64,000 nt of DNA from Synechococcales cyanobacterium VAR_4_metabat_354 (GCA_031414775.1 JANOQI010000062.1:64001-128000), one strand, 5' to 3'; positions 6,559-16,633 are shown, counted from the stretch's first letter. The notes: generated by a model not told the origin, from the letters alone. Program-made: numbers and translations.

Positions 6559-6933
6559 ATGAGAAAAATCATAACTGCGGCGGCGGCGGTACTTATAAGC
6601 GGCGGGCTGGCGATGCCCGCGCTGGCCGATCAATGTCAATTGGTGGGTAAGTCGCAAGCATTGGCGGCTCTGAATTATCTATCGATCGGTCAGACCATTT
6701 ACAATTTTTGTGAGCTATGTGGCGACAAAACTCCCCAGCCGATCCAGATTAATAAAATTGCGGTCACCAGTGGGGAAGATGGCAAATTATGGCAAGTGGC
6801 AGTTAATAACAAAAATATCGATTTGGCTTACACCTATATTCGGTATGAACCAAAATATCAGGTCAGCTTAGCAGTGATTACGAAATGTCCGACCCAGGGC
6901 GTAACCCCGGTAATGAAAATTAAAGCCAAATAG
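6559..6933 (+). CDS. hypothetical secreted Cys-containing protein
   Basis: Signal peptide ending PALA-D; four Cys including CELC; starts 3 nt after the secA stop. Confidence 0.75.
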   Translation: MRKIITAAAAVLISGGLAMPALADQCQLVGKSQALAALNYLSIGQTIYNFCELCGDKTPQPIQINKIAVTSGEDGKLWQVAVNNKNIDLAYTYIRYEPKYQVSLAVITKCPTQGVTPVMKIKAK

Positions 6934-6944
6934 TCGGTAAGCAG

Positions 6945-6982
6945 CTGCGCTCAACCCATTGAAATACAAGGTTTGAGCGCAG
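6945..6982. terminator. hairpin between convergent genes
   Basis: CTGCGCTCAA...TTGAGCGCAG 10-bp inverted repeat. Confidence 0.55.
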
Positions 6983-7011: not shown

Positions 7012-8790
7012 CTAATTTTCTAAGAGTTTCCCTGCAATCTGTTCGACATCAATGCTGATGGAGCCAGATTTAGGTTCACTTACTGTATAAACAACTGTCA
7101 CATTGAGGTCTTCAGTACTTACAATTTCCAAAAAACCAATAGTCAAAGGCATTGGAGCCGAAGGCGGTGCACCAAATAATAACTCACCAATGCGGTAACA
7201 ATCATCCATGGTCGCTGTGTTCGGTGGTAGAACCATCTGATCACGCACTTTACGTTCTACAAATTTAGGTTCACGTCCACTTGGTGCACCAGCAAATACG
7301 ACTGGAAGTAAGTATTTTTCAATTTTCACTTCTTTGTTTTGGTAATTGTGGATGTTGATTTCGGTTGCATATGCGCCTGGTCTCACTACGGATTCATCAC
7401 ATTTACACTCTTCTTGCACGCCACAGACAAATTTGACGCTGTAGCTGCGTTTACAAGCAGGAATGGTGATTTTGACCTGCTTGCTGACAACAACCACACC
7501 ATCTGCAACCGCATCAATCGTCCCCGTGAAAACTTGTGGCTTTTCGCTACAGGGTATAACTCCCGTAAAAACCACATCGAACGGGAGGACATGCTCTACA
7601 TCGCTAGCTAGAGGACCATACCCACCCAGAGGCGAAATGAAAGTAACAAATGGCACTGTTCCACCGGTTGGTAATAACTTTAGGTTATTGATGGTGCTAA
7701 TCGCATTGGCAATCAGCTTGATAATCGTATCCACAATACTGGTGGCATCAATCCCAGAAATAAAGGTACCATTGGGCGTTGCCGTAGCAATCCTTGTGCC
7801 TTGACCAGATGTTCCGCCAATACTACAAAAAGCAGCATAATCATTCGCACTAGTGATGGGATCATCGTCCAATCCATTGGGGAAACCCGTTACTGTACTA
7901 ATTGCCAACACCGTAATTTTTTCAGTAACTAACTTATTAGTCACCGAGGCTTCGGTAATGTCAGCAGCTAAGCCAGAGATGGCGGTGCAAATTGGATCAT
8001 GTCCCGGTGCATCGCCAAACCAAACAATGATGCGCTTAGAACCAGTCCGCCAACCGATTGAACCGCCAGGCGGCTCGGCAATTTGATCTAGAGCAAAGAG
8101 TTGTCCTTCAGAGCCATCAGAGCCATCTGCGGCTACCCATGTATTGATAGCGTTGGTAACATCAACTGCATTGGTAGTCAGATTGAGTTGATGCTGAAAT
8201 GCGTAGGGATTGGAGGTGGGAATCGGAAAGTCTTTATAGTTCCCCACACCAAAGGCCAGGTCAAGTCCTAGTCCATTCAGTGCAGTTAAAATTGCATTTG
8301 CACCTGTTTGTACAGATGCCAGTATACTCCCCATACTGCCTGTTGTATCAGCCAAAAAGTAAACATCGGCTTTGGAAACACCAACAGATTTAGGTACAGT
8401 GACGGTAATAACTTCACCTAAAGTATCATCTAAGTTAAGCACTAAGTCATTAACTGTTGGATCGATCGTGATTGCTCCAACTGCTGTAGCCAAAGCACTC
8501 ATATCAACTTTTATCTCGGGGACAGCAAAAAATCCTTTACCTTCCCTTTTGCTTATACCCGCCAAATCTGAAACTTCTCCAGTTTCATCTAAAACTACAA
8601 CATAATGTGAACCATTTGGCTCCTCTTGTTGTACAGCTTGAAACTTAAAGAGTTTTGTACCAGTAGATGGTACTAGATCTTCAGTCACATTAATGATTGT
8701 TAAGTTATCTACAGCATTGCGCTCTGAGAGAATTTGTAATGCTCTCGCTGCCAGCGAATTTGGGACACGTTCTAAAGGTGATCTTGACAT
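7012..8790 (-). CDS. vWA-domain protein with integrin-beta-like headpiece and C-terminal Cys-containing beta domain
   Basis: DVYFLADTTGSM MIDAS-like motif, FGVGNYKD, FQHQLNLT, DGSEG, IGWR, IIVWFGDA; C-terminal YSVKFVCG...YATEINIHN. Confidence 0.85.
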   Translation of the reverse strand: MSRSPLERVPNSLAARALQILSERNAVDNLTIINVTEDLVPSTGTKLFKFQAVQQEEPNGSHYVVVLDETGEVSDLAGISKREGKGFFAVPEIKVDMSALATAVGAITIDPTVNDLVLNLDDTLGEVITVTVPKSVGVSKADVYFLADTTGSMGSILASVQTGANAILTALNGLGLDLAFGVGNYKDFPIPTSNPYAFQHQLNLTTNAVDVTNAINTWVAADGSDGSEGQLFALDQIAEPPGGSIGWRTGSKRIIVWFGDAPGHDPICTAISGLAADITEASVTNKLVTEKITVLAISTVTGFPNGLDDDPITSANDYAAFCSIGGTSGQGTRIATATPNGTFISGIDATSIVDTIIKLIANAISTINNLKLLPTGGTVPFVTFISPLGGYGPLASDVEHVLPFDVVFTGVIPCSEKPQVFTGTIDAVADGVVVVSKQVKITIPACKRSYSVKFVCGVQEECKCDESVVRPGAYATEINIHNYQNKEVKIEKYLLPVVFAGAPSGREPKFVERKVRDQMVLPPNTATMDDCYRIGELLFGAPPSAPMPLTIGFLEIVSTEDLNVTVVYTVSEPKSGSISIDVEQIAGKLLEN

Positions 8791-9330
8791 GAGTTTAAAC
8801 TTCTTTTCTTATATGTATTTAGATTTCGTTTGTATTTGGATAAATTCATTTGAGCAAGTATAGTAAACCTAAATCAGTACCTAAATCAAATCGTCTCTGG
8901 AACCTCTATATAGAGAATTTTCCTTCTTGTGAAAGTATCCTGATACCATTCTTTGCACAACACTTCTAACCTTATCCAGTCAACTTTATTATTGTGCTTT
9001 TTCCTACATATTGGAATAGCTTTTATGAAAAAAAAAGACAAAATTATCTCATTTGTTAGCAATGATATTTTACTGTGGAATATCATTGCTTACCAGATGG
9101 TAAAACGTTGCTGCATAACCTCCACAGCTTTAATTAGTTACTTAAATGCAGTTAAGCTTTTGACTATCTAGAGTTAATTTAGAGCTTAATATAGTCCATA
9201 ATTGTATATGTTATGTCTTTTATATTATTAATCTCGCACATTAAAACAACATAAAGTCTCTAAATTTTTCTACTTAATCCTGAGCGATCGCCAGAATAAA
9301 AATATCATTTTTCACGCGATGTGCAATTAT

Positions 9331-9443: not shown

Positions 9444-9550
9444 TATTTGAGATGGCTGAAATGACTTCAATTATCGTGAAGTTGCTCTTGATGAATTAGG
9501 TAGATTATGATGGGCATCACATCTCAAAACCCCAGTTGATGGTAACCAAC

Positions 9551-10087
9551 ATGGTCAACACTCCCACCAAGAAACTTACCAAAGCAGAATTTTGGGCGAT
9601 CGCCGATGCTGCTGATGTCACCTATGAATTAATTGATGGAATTCCTATTGCCAAAATGTCACCTAAGTATTTTCATTCTCGCTCCACTGGTGAAATTTTT
9701 ATAATTTTGAGGAGCTGGGCTAACAACCGAGGTCGAGTAGGAGTTGAATGGTCAATCGATCTCCGCGATAACTTCACCCCCGTACCAGATTTGCTCTATG
9801 TATCCTTTGATAAATTACCCATCACTTGGCAAGAAAACGCCGCTTGCCCAGTTGCCCCAGAACTAGCCATCGAAATCATTTCTCCTGGTCAGACCTTTGG
9901 CCAAATGACCCAAAAAGCCAGTAGCTACCTCACCAACGGCATCCTGCGCGTATGGGTGATCGACCCCACCGCAAAGATCCTAACCGTTTTTTATCCCGAT
10001 GCCGCACCAATTACATACAGCGGCACCCAAATTATTTCCGACCCAATTTTTCCAGACCTCTCGATTATTGCCAACCAGCTGTTTTGA
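9551..10087 (+). CDS. Uma2 family endonuclease-like protein
   Basis: YELIDG, PDL, PELAIEIISP, VWVIDP motifs. Confidence 0.92.
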   Translation: MVNTPTKKLTKAEFWAIADAADVTYELIDGIPIAKMSPKYFHSRSTGEIFIILRSWANNRGRVGVEWSIDLRDNFTPVPDLLYVSFDKLPITWQENAACPVAPELAIEIISPGQTFGQMTQKASSYLTNGILRVWVIDPTAKILTVFYPDAAPITYSGTQIISDPIFPDLSIIANQLF

Positions 10088-12972: not shown

Positions 12973-13419
12973 ATGACAATGGCAAGTGCAACAGGATACG
13001 ATTGGGACAGAATTACTTTTGCCTCAACTCTCTTTTTATGTCCAATTCTTGACCAAATTCTGGCCGCAGTGCCCAAGAAATGGCATCCAGAAATTAGACT
13101 AGGTTTACAAGAAGCGTTAGTAAACGCTGCCAAGCACGGAAACAATCTTGACCCTCAAAAAAAAATTGTTGTCCATTTTTCTTTTACAGAAGGTGAATAT
13201 TGGTGGATTATTTCTGATGAAGGTGGGGGTTTTGAGTCACCTTGTGACTGTCATCAAACTATTGCCGAGAAGCTACCAGAAAGCGAATCAGAATCTGGCC
13301 GAGGAATGTCACTATTGCACCAGATATTCGATCGGGTGGTGTGGAATGTCCAAGGTACTGAGTTAAGGCTCTGCAAGCAGCTTCGTTGTAAAGCTGGGCG
13401 TGAGCCATTTTTATGCTGA
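12973..13419 (+). CDS. pmgA: PmgA-like anti-sigma-factor/HATPase_c regulatory protein
   Basis: FASTLFLCPILD, LGLQEALVNAAKHGN, DEGGGF, ESGRGM. Confidence 0.85.
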   Translation: MTMASATGYDWDRITFASTLFLCPILDQILAAVPKKWHPEIRLGLQEALVNAAKHGNNLDPQKKIVVHFSFTEGEYWWIISDEGGGFESPCDCHQTIAEKLPESESESGRGMSLLHQIFDRVVWNVQGTELRLCKQLRCKAGREPFLC

Positions 13420-13462
13420 AAAAAGTTGAAATCTTTATCTAAAATTTTCAAAAAATATTCTA

Positions 13463-13497
13463 TTAAAAAGCCCGAACTAGTTGTTCGGGCTTTTTAA
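13463..13497. terminator. bidirectional rho-independent terminator
   Basis: TTAAAAAGCCCGAAC-TAGTT-GTTCGGGCTTTTTAA between convergent genes. Confidence 0.85.
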
Positions 13498-13528
13498 TTA
13501 ATTGATTTCTACTTAATTCACACCAAAA

Positions 13529-13891
13529 CTATTGCTTAACTTCACAAGTCAAAGGACAAGCTGCATAAGTAATTGTTTGCAAAGTATTGCCTTTGCCATT
13601 CAACCAGCTCAACCAAGTAACTTCGTCAGGGTGAATACCTTTCATTGTCAAAACTGCCGCAATTAACAAGACAGCTAAGATATTCGCGGCAAAGATTCCA
13701 CCAGCAACTAGTAAAACCGCACTTACCGGTAAGACTGGGTGCAAAGCTACTGATAGTAGAGCACCTACTGTCGCCATTACTGCTACCAAAGGAAAACCTA
13801 CTACTAGCAAGCACACAGCGAGGGTAAAGCACCAGATGAGAAAGCTCTTCCCAGTAGACAGGTAATTTTTTCTTGTTGTGGCTAATTGCAT
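13529..13891 (-). CDS. conserved cyanobacterial hypothetical membrane protein
   Basis: Long hydrophobic stretch, KGIHPDEVTWLSWL, C-terminal CPLTC; GGAG RBS upstream. Confidence 0.8.
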   Translation of the reverse strand: MQLATTRKNYLSTGKSFLIWCFTLAVCLLVVGFPLVAVMATVGALLSVALHPVLPVSAVLLVAGGIFAANILAVLLIAAVLTMKGIHPDEVTWLSWLNGKGNTLQTITYAACPLTCEVKQ

Positions 13892-14390
13892 TTTTTATCT
13901 CCAGTAGTTTTTACGAATACCATCAAAGATTGGACGAATTAGGTCTCTCTCGGTATGGGGATCAATTTTCTTGGTCTCTTTAATATAGAGGATGTTGCCG
14001 GAGAAGTATGAGGACTCCTATATGAAAGTTTACACAAATCATCACAACGATGAGTCTAATTACTCATAAGATTATTTTAATTCTTATACTAAAAAATATG
14101 AAAAGCGATTGAAAGATTGATTTCTGAAGGGTTAATAACTGCTGGAAATACTGCTGGATAAAAACTACCTGAAGTAACATGATTCTAATTAGTGCAGTCC
14201 AAATTATCCGTCTTAAAGGCTGCGGTCATTGGTGAATAATATTTACATTTTGTAATTATATCCAGACAAATAAAAATAGGTTAACGAATACAGCAAAAGT
14301 TATATGGATAAATCAGCGGTGCGGTCTGGGTACTCTGAAAATATAGTCGGAAAACATTTAGTATCGATCGATTGAGGAATTATTTAAATT

Positions 14391-15590
14391 ATGCCTAGCC
14401 CACCACCACCACCAACTCAGAACAGCTCAATATTTACAGGTACCCTGGATACCAATGAAGTACCGGTCTTTAACCGTCGCCCGACCCAAGCGCAAGCAGA
14501 AGATGTAACCGTGGCAAGCCTCCCCAACGGACAGCCCACTATTGAACAGCTGATTACCGAAGCCTTTACGAAAGGTTACTCTGATGTGCATGTGGGGGTT
14601 GGTGAAGAACCACGTTTTCGCAATCGGGGAGAAATTGAGACCACTAGCTACCCCGAAACCGATCAGCTGACTTTCCAGTGTTGGCTACAAGAACTGTTAA
14701 CTGATGAAGAAATTCGCAAGTTTGAAGAGAACCTGGATTTTGATGGAGCAACTCAGTACGACTTTGCCCGGGTACGAATCAATGTTTTTGATTCTCTCAA
14801 TGGCCCCGGCATGGTGATGCGTTTGATTCCCCTCAAGATTATGACCTTGGAGCAGTTGCGGCTACCACAGATTTTCAAGGATGTTTGTCAATATCATAAG
14901 GGTTTGATTTTGGTGACTGGCCCAACTGGTTCGGGCAAATCTACTACGATGGCAGCGATGGTAGACTATATGAACCAAGAAATGCCTCGCCATATTATTA
15001 CGATCGAAGACCCGGTAGAATTCATTCACAAAAGCCAGCGAGCCTTAATTAAGCACCGGGAAGTGGGTACCAACACGCTCAAATTTGATGTGGCGCTTAA
15101 GGCCGCTTTGCGTGAAGACCCCGATGTGATTTTGATTGGGGAAATGCGCGATCGAGAGACTGTCAACACGGCTCTAAAAGCGGCTCAAACCGGTCACTTA
15201 GTAATTGGTACTTTGCATACTAATAGTGCCATTAAGACGATCGAACGTATTTTGGGCTTGTATGATGCTGACGAACAACCAGCTATGCGGGTAGCTTTAG
15301 CTGAATCGTTAGTGGCGGTAATTGCTCAGGGTCTATGTCGCACTACCGATGGTAAACGGGCTGCGTATCATGACATTTTGATTAATACGGAAACTGTCAA
15401 AGATTATGTCCGAGATGGCAAGTATGACGAAATTAATGAGTTGATGCTGGATGGTGAGTTCAGCGGCATGATTACGATGAACAAGTCGCTATTTAATCTT
15501 TATCAGGAAGGTCGGGTGACGGAGGAAATTGCGCTGGAATTGTCACCAACTCCAAATGAGATGGCGATGATGCTACGTGGTCGGATTTAA
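14391..15590 (+). CDS. pilT: type IV pilus retraction ATPase (PilT2-type, Pro-rich N-terminus)
   Basis: SDVHVGVG, GPTGSGKSTT, TIEDPVE, LREDPDVILIGEMRD, TGHLVIGTLHT. Confidence 0.95.
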   Translation: MPSPPPPPTQNSSIFTGTLDTNEVPVFNRRPTQAQAEDVTVASLPNGQPTIEQLITEAFTKGYSDVHVGVGEEPRFRNRGEIETTSYPETDQLTFQCWLQELLTDEEIRKFEENLDFDGATQYDFARVRINVFDSLNGPGMVMRLIPLKIMTLEQLRLPQIFKDVCQYHKGLILVTGPTGSGKSTTMAAMVDYMNQEMPRHIITIEDPVEFIHKSQRALIKHREVGTNTLKFDVALKAALREDPDVILIGEMRDRETVNTALKAAQTGHLVIGTLHTNSAIKTIERILGLYDADEQPAMRVALAESLVAVIAQGLCRTTDGKRAAYHDILINTETVKDYVRDGKYDEINELMLDGEFSGMITMNKSLFNLYQEGRVTEEIALELSPTPNEMAMMLRGRI

Positions 15591-15720
15591 CCTAACTTGG
15601 GCGTTGCTTAATCAAGGTACAAGAGCAGCCCAGTGGCGTACAGAAAAAACAAGTTAGGATCTAGCTACTAGCCAAATACATAGTCGATCGATCCTAACCA
15701 GAGCTGTTGCCAGAGGTTGT

Positions 15721-16152
15721 ATGCAATACGAAATTACTACCCAAATACCCACAGTTAGTGAATACCAATTTTTGAGAGCAGCGGTAGGTTGGCACAACCA
15801 CACGGTAACAGTGGCAGAACAATCACTCCAAAATTCTCTGTACAGTGTATGTGCAGTTCATGAAAATGATGTAATTGGCTGTGGAAGAGTGGTTGGGGAT
15901 GGTTATATCTATTTTTATCTACAAGATGTGATCGTTTTGCCAAAATATCAAGGTCATGGCATTGGCTTCAAAATTACTGAAAACATCCAGAACCATGTAC
16001 TATCGATCGCGCAGCCCGGTGCTTTCTTTGGTCTGATGGCTGCTGATGGTGCTGCGAGTATGTATGAAAAATTTGGCTTTGCCTGCCGACCCCCAAACAG
16101 GCCAGGGATGTCCATGTGGATCGACAAAGACTCGTTCACTAAATCACAATGA
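15721..16152 (+). CDS. GNAT family N-acetyltransferase
   Basis: GCGRVVGDG, DVIVLPKYQGHGIG, MYEKFGF. Confidence 0.9.
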   Translation: MQYEITTQIPTVSEYQFLRAAVGWHNHTVTVAEQSLQNSLYSVCAVHENDVIGCGRVVGDGYIYFYLQDVIVLPKYQGHGIGFKITENIQNHVLSIAQPGAFFGLMAADGAASMYEKFGFACRPPNRPGMSMWIDKDSFTKSQ

Positions 16153-16201
16153 TGCGATCGATCTCAACATCCCAATCCAACGAAAAAATCTATTTCTACA
16201 C

Positions 16202-16633
16202 TTAATCTTTCAATGTCAATGTTTCTGGCGGATAATCGGCACCCTCCAGCATCACCATCGTAATTACCCCGTAGGCATCCACCCAAGCTTGCTTAACATC
16301 AGGAGTCCATGCCGTTCCGGCAAAACTAGCCATAGTTTTCAGCAAAGAACTGCCCACTAACGGATAGTGTTGCGGCAACACGCCATACTTTACATGGCGA
16401 GTCCCCAAACCTTGCAGCGTTGAAGTCAATAACTCGGAGTTGCGCAGATTATCTACCACGAACTTTAGAGAGTCAGCGAGATGACCTCCTTGCTCATTCA
16501 TTTGTGTATTAACAAACAGGGGCTGAATGTCAGGATAATCATTTAAAAGATTGGCATAAAAAGCAGCCGGGAAATCACGGTTAGAATTTTGGACTACTTG
16601 AAAACTGGCTTCTAAAACTTCCACATTCAACAT
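16202..16633 (-). CDS. single-domain globin (flavohaemoglobin-like globin domain)
   Basis: FY..L...P.I.PLF, LGTRHVKYGV..QHYPLVG, WTPDVKQAW..AY. Confidence 0.9.
   Translation of the reverse strand: MLNVEVLEASFQVVQNSNRDFPAAFYANLLNDYPDIQPLFVNTQMNEQGGHLADSLKFVVDNLRNSELLTSTLQGLGTRHVKYGVLPQHYPLVGSSLLKTMASFAGTAWTPDVKQAWVDAYGVITMVMLEGADYPPETLTLKD

Follow-up and report, generated by a model that had tools for sequence, protein, structure and literature searches.

The gene, its surroundings and its domain layout

We identified a gene for a protein of 592 amino acids on the minus strand of the window, which is the whole stretch of 64,000 nucleotides analysed here. The open reading frame spans 7012-8790 (translated 7015-8790, minus strand; stored as P0001). 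The feature marked in the first-pass annotation, 7453..8472, corresponds to residues 107-446 and is the middle of this frame. The AF2 model of the protein (115 sequences) has a mean pLDDT of 91.9. The features of the gene and its flanks are as follows.

7012..8790, minus strand: whole reading frame, 592 aa, with N-terminal domain, hybrid/beta-I head and predicted ASRAH-type domain (AF2 model)
8515..8769, minus strand: N-terminal domain of no assigned family (residues about 8-92), with a helix, then three strands, then a helix (DSSP on the model, alignment)
8380..8478, minus strand: hybrid-like beta-sandwich, N-terminal segment, residues 105-137 (alignment to integrin hybrid residues)
7693..8379, minus strand: beta-I-type vWA domain, residues 138-366 (5FFG_B, 2.9 Å over 205 residues)
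8335..8349, minus strand: MIDAS motif D148-T-T150-G-S152 (D148, T150 and S152 invariant in homologues)
8230-8232, minus strand: D187, joining the D225..E228 set
8107..8118, minus strand: D225..E228, matching the integrin D-x-P-E motif; putative SyMBS Asp and MIDAS/SyMBS Glu positions (invariant; register from integrin alignments)
8011-8013, minus strand: D260, joining the D225..E228 set
7453..7692, minus strand: hybrid-like beta-sandwich, C-terminal segment, residues 367-446, with the C414/C446 pair (structural alignment)
7015..7452, minus strand: predicted ASRAH-type beta-sandwich, residues 447-592, with the C456/C531 pair (structural matches, tetramer model)
9055..9093, no strand: possible regulator site 265 bp upstream of the start codon; inverted repeat of 15 bp around a 9-bp spacer
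6945..6982, no strand: 13-bp hairpin between the gene and the convergent 124-aa gene; possible terminator shared by the two

The gene stands alone, between a convergent gene of 124 codons that follows secA on one side and an AT-rich gap of 745 bp on the other (neighbour names were read off the translations). An orthologue (L001) is identical at 559 of 592 positions with a dN/dS of 0.12, and we therefore conclude that the gene is real and under purifying selection. The 15-bp inverted repeat, with one change, and the remaining intergenic region are kept in L001. The 13-bp hairpin was not called by the terminator scan, and the promoter scan at the gene fell below chance (3 sites, 7.7 expected). 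No credible repeats were found at the ends of the gene, and no RNA holder is listed for it.

Within the genus, full-length matches to the protein occur in 1 of 11 genomes, and in 0 of 13 genomes of the other genus of the family. In a congener the flank is shared as far as roughly position 6932, beyond which the two sequences diverge. Third-position GC is 0.34, compared with 0.45-0.53 in five genes nearby, in a host genome of 3.56 Mb with 45.6% GC. As the first-pass annotation had proposed, this is an accessory gene. The protein has no match in NCBIfam, PADLOC or PHROGs, so a role in defence or in phage is unsupported. The idea of a contractile-injection cargo (PF14065) found no match in the own genome, and the control genomes were also silent.

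A hydrophobicity heuristic detected neither a signal peptide nor a transmembrane helix in the protein (best 19-residue hydropathy 1.43), and no export route was found for it. The order of elements in the N-terminal domain (DSSP on the model) resembles that of PepSY, and the PepSY profile matched 1 of 49 domain members (E 0.007). Searches with this domain against Pfam and PDB profiles (A3 alignment, 49 rows) returned nothing credible, the Atlas search returned zero matches, and a PepSY search of the own genome yielded no sequences for comparison.

A beta-I domain nested in a hybrid-like sandwich

The first-pass annotation had described an integrin-beta-like headpiece, with a beta-I domain nested in a split hybrid-like domain. 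The motifs on which it relied are all in the translation: ITIDP (107-111), DLVL (115-118), ITVTV (128-132), DVYFLADTTGSM (142-153), FGVGNYKDFP (180-189), FQHQLNLT (198-205), DGSEG (225-229), IGWR (245-248), IIVWFGDAPGH (254-264), SIVDTII (351-357) and FDVVF (404-408), as well as C414 and C446. It had suggested comparing Integrin_beta with generic vWA profiles and examining an AlphaFold-type model by structural search. Pfam Integrin_beta scores 41.5 bits (cut-off 24.8) and vWA_SIBA-E 41 bits (cut-off 27), whereas the generic VWA_2 and VWA_4 reach about 14 bits and lie under the cut-off. An HMM built from seven vertebrate integrin headpieces gives residues 104-446 a score of 29.0 bits; the best of 1000 shuffled sequences scored 3.7 bits, and 442 were reported at all. 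Profile-profile comparison with seven vertebrate integrins gave a probability of 97.6% (E 2.8e-12) over 154 columns, running from the N-terminal hybrid segment to H264, and all 60 among the matches listed in the PDB profile search are integrin beta or beta-like chains. The hybrid segments alone did not match integrin hybrid sequence significantly (N part E 0.23, C part E 0.87), and the homology of the C-terminal hybrid half therefore rests on the predicted structure and on natural deletion forms.

Structural searches with the model agree on integrin beta heads as the best matches. Foldseek ranks 1-50 among the matches listed are integrin beta chains, mostly over about 380-430 columns. The top six rows of the wide VIA search are likewise integrin beta chains (Z 20.9-22.4, model 103-447), including beta6 (Z 22.4, 6.0 Å, 304 residues). 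The best fit of a second look is 3ZE2_D (Z 23.4, 3.3 Å, 302 residues), which places model residues 105-445 on beta3 71-433. The two flanks co-fold in the model.

Nature also provides forms of the head from which the inserted domain is missing. In 3 of 287 stored sequences holding both hybrid halves, the halves lie 6-8 residues apart and beta-I is absent. These homologues (L153, L156 and L179), each found in a different metagenome record, sit at two positions in the tree with starred branches between them, suggesting that a clean loss of beta-I likely happened at least twice. The joined flanks of these forms support a single split hybrid domain. We are highly confident that a beta-I domain is inserted in a hybrid-like sandwich.

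Eight residues, D148, T150, S152, D187, D225, E228, D260 and H264, do not vary among the 115 close homologues aligned or among the 68 diverse ones. D148, T150, S152, E228 and D260 make up a complete MIDAS in integrin register, with Thr replacing the first Ser, as the first-pass annotation had anticipated. At the SyMBS-like site that it had also noted, D187, D225 and E228 are invariant, but the Asn of the integrin GNLD motif is Gly (G223) in all 68 diverse sequences. The ADMIDAS Asp pair is indeed absent, replaced at motif positions 8 and 9 by S155 and I156; position 9 is hydrophobic in all 115 aligned sequences but one, which has Asn. In integrins this pair is part of the DXSXSXXDD motif, and in beta8, which is without ADMIDAS, the hybrid domain does not swing outward upon ligand binding (available part of PMC6889490).

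Compared with integrin beta headpieces (beta3 3ZE2_D, beta6 4UM9_B and beta8 8TCF_B; PF00362), the protein shares the nested beta-I/hybrid arrangement over ~300 residues at 17-21% identity, the MIDAS Asp, Ser, Glu and Asp, the SyMBS-type Asp residues, the IGWR and D-x-x-x-H motifs, and the Cys pair that closes the hybrid domain. ADMIDAS is missing from it as from beta8. It differs in the Thr and Gly substitutions described above, in the deletion of the specificity-determining loop after the FVDK motif (a gap of about 20-23 residues) and in its additional parts, namely the N-terminal domain, the predicted ASRAH-type domain and an insertion in beta-I (298-332) that appears disulfide-bonded. By PDB profile alignment, A270 occupies the position of the beta8 Lys, where integrins have the Lys/Arg that docks in the alpha propeller. 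No recurring propeller (alpha-chain-like) gene was found in 80 loci, and beta-propeller repeats are fused to some relatives. No Pfam matches to PSI, I-EGF legs, tail domain, membrane helix or NPxY tail were found in the 592-aa protein, and the model and structural search assign the flanks of the head to folds other than the integrin PSI and legs. Cysteines are conserved in pairs, in counts that include kin: C268/C322 are both present in 60 and both absent in 8 of 68 sequences, C456/C531 are both present in 69 and both absent in 9 of 78, and C414/C446 are both present in 65 of 68. Thus, the head is homologous to the integrin beta head, yet the protein is not an integrin, as it has no ADMIDAS, specificity loop, PSI/EGF legs, membrane anchor or signal peptide.

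Relatives, the C-terminal domain and a neighbouring protease

Among 7993 proteins scored, 1289 are relatives, of 325-1036 aa; the best 120 of these are, apart from the query, 52-73% identical, nearly all across most of their length. In species genomes a relative is encoded at 338 of 396 pattern matches. The best 80 of the 338 loci belong to Actinomycetota (26), Pseudomonadota (22), Acidobacteriota (15), Bacteroidota (6), Cyanobacteriota (4), Verrucomicrobiota (2) and four phyla with one each, one of them archaeal, with one unassigned. The label “cyanobacterial” given to the protein at first does not fit the family, which is spread over about ten phyla. The C-terminal domain, the missing signal peptide and the protease neighbour had likewise escaped the first-pass annotation.

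The head itself is more widespread, with at least 636 cluster representatives (50% identity) matching its profile at E up to 1e-30. According to heuristics, the best 150 of these include 78 with a start resembling a signal peptide (5 of them with a C-terminal membrane helix as well), 40 with the N-terminal domain and 17 with the ASRAH domain. Such a start is also found in 28 of 34 long fusions with the head, and some head relatives bear PEP-CTERM or membrane anchors. The form of about 590 aa is leaderless in 118 of 120 sequences, a start resembling a signal peptide being found heuristically in only 2. A further 36 leaderless relatives among the best 150 representatives have other tails of at least 90 residues: an unannotated repeat group (11), ricin-B-like (7, of which 3 above the Pfam cut-off), RCC1 (2), crystallin-like (2), ILEI (1) and others. 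Ricin-B, ILEI or crystallin modules occupy the ASRAH position in other leaderless relatives. The literature searched offers no precedent on leaderless lectins.

Bacterial integrin-beta-like sequences have been noted before, as the first-pass annotation stated. A protein of Trichodesmium erythraeum is discussed in bioRxiv 10.1101/2020.04.29.069435, and bioRxiv 10.1101/2023.10.19.562135 presents CglD of Myxococcus xanthus as a beta-integrin-like protein that has a vWA and a beta-sandwich (both sources in part). By the latter description, CglD resembles the present protein in its beta3-like vWA and beta-sandwich, and it has a functionally needed MIDAS Asp and a role in adhesion; it differs as a surface lipoprotein of the gliding machine with COMP-like and EGF-like repeats, and the available description includes no ASRAH domain. 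The Trichodesmium protein and a clade associated with RTX/haemagglutinin proteins (L094, P0155-P0262) likewise have a bacterial beta-I without legs or anchor. Several members of this clade have hybrid segments (P0157, for example, matches HMM positions 13-350 of 359), and their beta-I sits in large RTX-repeat proteins, unlike that of the 592-aa family. The median headpiece HMM score is 108 bits in the RTX-associated clade and 28 bits in the 592-aa family (105 and 120 sequences). In two quick trees, the first of 76 rows and the second of 40 of these, the clade falls together with vertebrate beta-I (SH-aLRT 99); the integrins included are vertebrate only, and their branch is long. In an AU test, a grouping of the 592-aa family with its long relatives and the integrins was not rejected (p 0.094). 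From these sequence comparisons, the RTX-associated clade is probably closer to animal integrins than the 592-aa family is.

Residues 447-592 folded alone with a pLDDT of 95.2. In a structural search of 48,161 chains, TM1070 (1NC7) ranked first (Z 10.6, 4.0 Å, 110 residues) and ASRT (2II7) second (Z 7.8), the next chain having Z 6.0. Foldseek also matched 1NC7 (E 6e-4, TM 0.55/0.66), and the Atlas search matched ASRT clusters at 0.92. Sequence comparison was silent: hhalign against six near-identical ASRT sequences was not significant (E 0.15), Pfam ASRT matched 0 of 78 members, and searches of Pfam and PDB profiles (A2 alignment, 78 rows) found nothing credible. Judged by its predicted structure alone, this domain is an ASRAH-type beta-sandwich. 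It shares with the superfamily (ASRT 2II7, TM1070 1NC7) the sandwich, conserved residues at the interface, a predicted tetramer and the Asn at the end of strand 2, N482, which is present in 78 of 78 members and lies in the sole columns matched by hhalign. The differences are an identity of 8-12%, the lack of the SHE-x-x-C signature, an extra helix, a Cys-rich loop, the fusion to an integrin-like head or trypsin-vWA protease, and Tyr or Phe in place of the strand-1 Trp (positions 448 and 450 are mostly Tyr/Phe, with Trp at 448 in 4 of 78). ASRAH domains are tetrameric, predicted sugar binders with conserved inter-subunit residues, and solo ASRAH proteins are intracellular; the three families covered in the available part of PMC2739507, from which these statements come, include neither of these two fusions.

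A four-copy model of the domain scored 0.79, compared with 0.00 for the best of three controls, and its runs have at least 98% of contacts in common, with pLDDT of at least 85. Of 30 solved homodimers 20 attained this pass mark, as did 1 of 23 single chains. The four-copy job is unlike the two-copy calibration and these counts apply only roughly; the score may also reflect likeness to the solved ASRT and TM1070 tetramers. The near-invariant R506-E507-P508 and D529-D530-C531 fall in the modelled interface. The C-terminal domain is thus predicted to join four chains in a ring.

Directly adjacent on the same strand, 18 of 80 loci have a gene whose leaderless product of about 1090 aa combines a trypsin-like protease domain, a vWA domain, further domains and the same ASRAH-type domain (8 of 51 loci when only those with 3.5 kb on both sides are counted). 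This trypsin-vWA protease is absent from the own genome. The search for it took in 50 of the 62 protease-lacking loci (49 genomes); the ASRAH profile matched in 47 of those 50, with a frame of about 1090 aa in none. The gap between head and protease genes is -29 to +45 bp in 15 pairs measured. A search in the other direction, from the protease, gave 76 loci, 27 of them with 2 kb on both sides; a head neighboured 11 of 13 proteases with the ASRAH domain (9 whole, 2 beta-I-less) but 1 of 14 without it (Fisher p 7e-5; 1e-3 after collapsing at 75% identity). A tree-aware test of this link had 3 independent pairs and its sign test was not significant, and co-assembly of head and protease through the shared domain is for that reason a lead. 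Local domain duplication could explain the link as well.

Proposed function and alternatives

We propose that the protein is a tetravalent, metal-dependent binder that would grip acidic ligands, likely outside the cell, and give this reading a probability of about one half. Sequence, model and natural deletions together show that the hybrid-like sandwich harbours the beta-I domain as an insert. D148, T150, S152, E228 and D260 would hold Mg or Mn in a site completed by the carboxylate of a ligand, with a second ion perhaps at D187, D225 and E228. The C-terminal domains, predicted to join four chains, would make the binder four-armed and confer avidity. The conserved motifs between their subunits may bind a sugar, in line with proposals made for ASRAH domains elsewhere. 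The paired cysteines and the secreted relatives lead us to infer an oxidising, extracellular site of action, which would be reached without a signal peptide. In other genomes only, the adjacent ASRAH-bearing protease would co-assemble with the head, which would then aim or gate it.

Other readings were weighed against this one. That the protein is a generic bacterial vWA protein, with integrin-like nesting as a resemblance of the VIT/ArnB/ITIH or pilin type, is very improbable and largely refuted already. The VIT/ArnB/ITIH proteins (4FX5, 8S05, 5A8J, 6FPY) also hold a vWA in a beta-sandwich, some of them prokaryotic and leaderless; 4FX5 (Z 18.7, 9.0 Å, the best non-integrin of the wide VIA search), 8S05 (Z 17.3), 6FPY (Z 16.9) and Mfa5 (Z 15.1) cover the same range of the model, sequence comparison yields nothing significant for the C-terminal hybrid half, and the tree does not resolve the family as sister of integrins or of small cyanobacterial vWA proteins. 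Yet these nested-vWA matches fit at 7.4-10 Å, compared with 3.3-6 Å for integrins, and the VIT/ArnB/ITIH entries (7.4-9.0 Å) have no sequence-level match. Pfam found no VIT domain in the protein at E up to 1, and the profile results given above and the beta-I-specific motifs, which align in register together with the N hybrid segment, all favour integrin beta. We consider it unlikely, albeit to be taken seriously, that the protein is a cytoplasmic scaffold or regulator of the protease or another partner, with the N-terminal domain as an inhibitor-like prodomain. This would suit the leaderless form of the family and of the partner protease, the intracellular solo ASRAH proteins (PMC2739507, in part), the nested vWA proteins known from the cytoplasm (ArnB 8S05, VWA2 5A8J) and the PepSY-like order of the N-terminal domain. 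It would suit less well the three co-conserved cysteine pairs and the signal-peptide proteins that carry the same cassette and the same ASRAH-type domain; moreover, a MoxR or kinase neighbour recurs in none of 80 loci (clusters judged by eye), and neither Atlas nor PDB profile searches support PepSY.

Alternatively, in keeping with the allosteric module inferred in the first-pass annotation, the head may work as an integrin-type switch, in which a ligand at the MIDAS pushes the last beta-I helix and the hybrid domain swings and signals to the ASRAH ring or the protease. The linkage of beta-I and hybrid is wholly conserved, protease neighbours lie as close as described above, and the model is closest to 3ZE2 chain D (3.3 Å, compared with 4.4 Å for the closed 3NID and 3ZDX), the RGD-opened state 8 of beta3; its helix 151-172 is continuous, and one continuous helix is a mark of the open state (both points from the available part of PMC3691460). 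However, the 3ZE2_D score lies within 1 of the next row (Z 22.6) and 6AVU, titled as an open conformation, fits at 4.7 Å, no better than the closed entries, so the best fit to state 8 does not show allostery. A single predicted pose shows no motion, and ADMIDAS is lacking; beta8, which lacks it too, does not open (PMC6889490, in part). Beta-I-less forms persist beside the protease, indicating that the head is dispensable there. We regard the switch as quite unlikely. A fixed binder is more likely, given that there is no alpha chain, ADMIDAS, legs or membrane anchor. A still broader scheme, which we consider a shade less probable than the switch itself, is that four alpha-chain-free heads on an ASRAH ring open on an acidic ligand, in many species gating the protease, and that the beta-I/hybrid cassette, which in nature still sheds its beta-I insert cleanly, is an old prokaryotic module whose diversity was the source of animal integrin beta chains.

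Bacterial integrin-like heads were known in outline; what is new here is the C-terminal ASRAH-type sandwich with its predicted tetramer and the adjacent protease carrying the same type of domain in 18 of 80 loci. The literature searched, as freely accessible main texts in the parts available, does not describe the 592-aa family, the ASRAH-vWA fusion or the protease pair. The parts available portray the bacterial protein that resembles integrin beta either as an isolated transfer (Trichodesmium) or as something peculiar to myxobacteria (CglD). The beta-I/hybrid head described here is a mobile cassette found across about ten phyla and in at least 636 clusters, and the natural forms that cleanly miss beta-I show how it was assembled. 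The grouping of the RTX-associated clade with vertebrate beta-I bears on the origin of integrins. As a soluble protein of about 590 residues with neither alpha chain nor anchor, the protein offers a simple system for asking whether opening of the headpiece is older than the alpha/beta pair. Should it be only a fixed binder, it would still stand for a family not described before and add a new branch to the ASRAH superfamily.

Neighbours of the head gene

Two features lie upstream of the gene in the window:

9055-9093: inverted repeat of 15 bp with a 9-bp spacer
9536-10087 (+): 183-aa gene with PADLOC and PHROGs matches

The inverted repeat is conserved in L001, the stretch carrying the orthologue. 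The 183-aa gene matched the PADLOC candidate PDC-S03 (E 4e-22) as well as phrog_16228, and resembles a Uma2-type nuclease. In several actinobacteria (stretches L056, L063, L073, L079, L045 and L037), the head gene is found near a cluster whose appearance, judged by eye, suggests an ECF sigma factor together with a TPR-repeat protein.

Beta-I domains in other architectures

We identified a large clade of bacterial beta-I domains in RTX, haemagglutinin and Calx-beta proteins, represented by one DNA stretch (L094:1-3831, G228; beta-I, 158.7 bits in Pfam) and stored proteins P0155-P0262. The clade shares 33-45% identity with vertebrate integrin beta-I, or a likeness above that of the window family, and it formed one group with vertebrate integrins in quick trees. 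Some of its proteins also carry the hybrid segments.

Further stored proteins join the head, or parts of it, to other regions:

P0123, P0124, P0128, P0285, P0374: beta-I or hybrid/beta-I cassette and propeller-type repeats in a single chain
P0291, P0299, P0304, P0311, P0313, P0320, P0331, P0342, P0361: ~850-aa form; N-domain, head, then a 400-residue Trp-rich repeat region
P0122: N-domain, head and a 950-residue tail

The propeller-type repeats (weak FG-GAP, SBBP, LVIVD and RCC1) give the cassette fusions a resemblance to the integrin alpha/beta head. Neither the Trp-rich region, possibly a lectin-type propeller, nor the P0122 tail, which contains a Ser/Thr/Glu-rich stretch, had a match in Pfam.

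Beta-I-less forms, ASRAH-type domains and the protease

Three stretches encode natural forms with 6-8 residues between the hybrid segments, no beta-I and an ASRAH-type domain after them:

L153:2309-3274
L156:298-1296
L179:2029-3126

An ASRAH-bearing protease adjoins each. We infer that beta-I was lost at least two separate times among these forms.

ASRAH-type domains also occur outside head proteins:

L128:2444-3743 (tandem pair)
L129:2573-3262
L131:4601-7114
L132:3495-5924

Some stand alone with signal peptides, and others belong to secreted CARDB proteins and secreted S8 protease proteins.

Members of the trypsin-vWA protease family include:

L006:1849-5127
L007:5208-8462
L009:9686-12979 and 13010-16279

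These leaderless proteins (~980-1100 aa) comprise an N-terminal beta domain, a trypsin-like protease, vWA and further domains, with an ASRAH-type tail present or absent depending on the member. Their genes frequently form tandem pairs. Found in 287 metagenome stretches, this leaderless family is undescribed.
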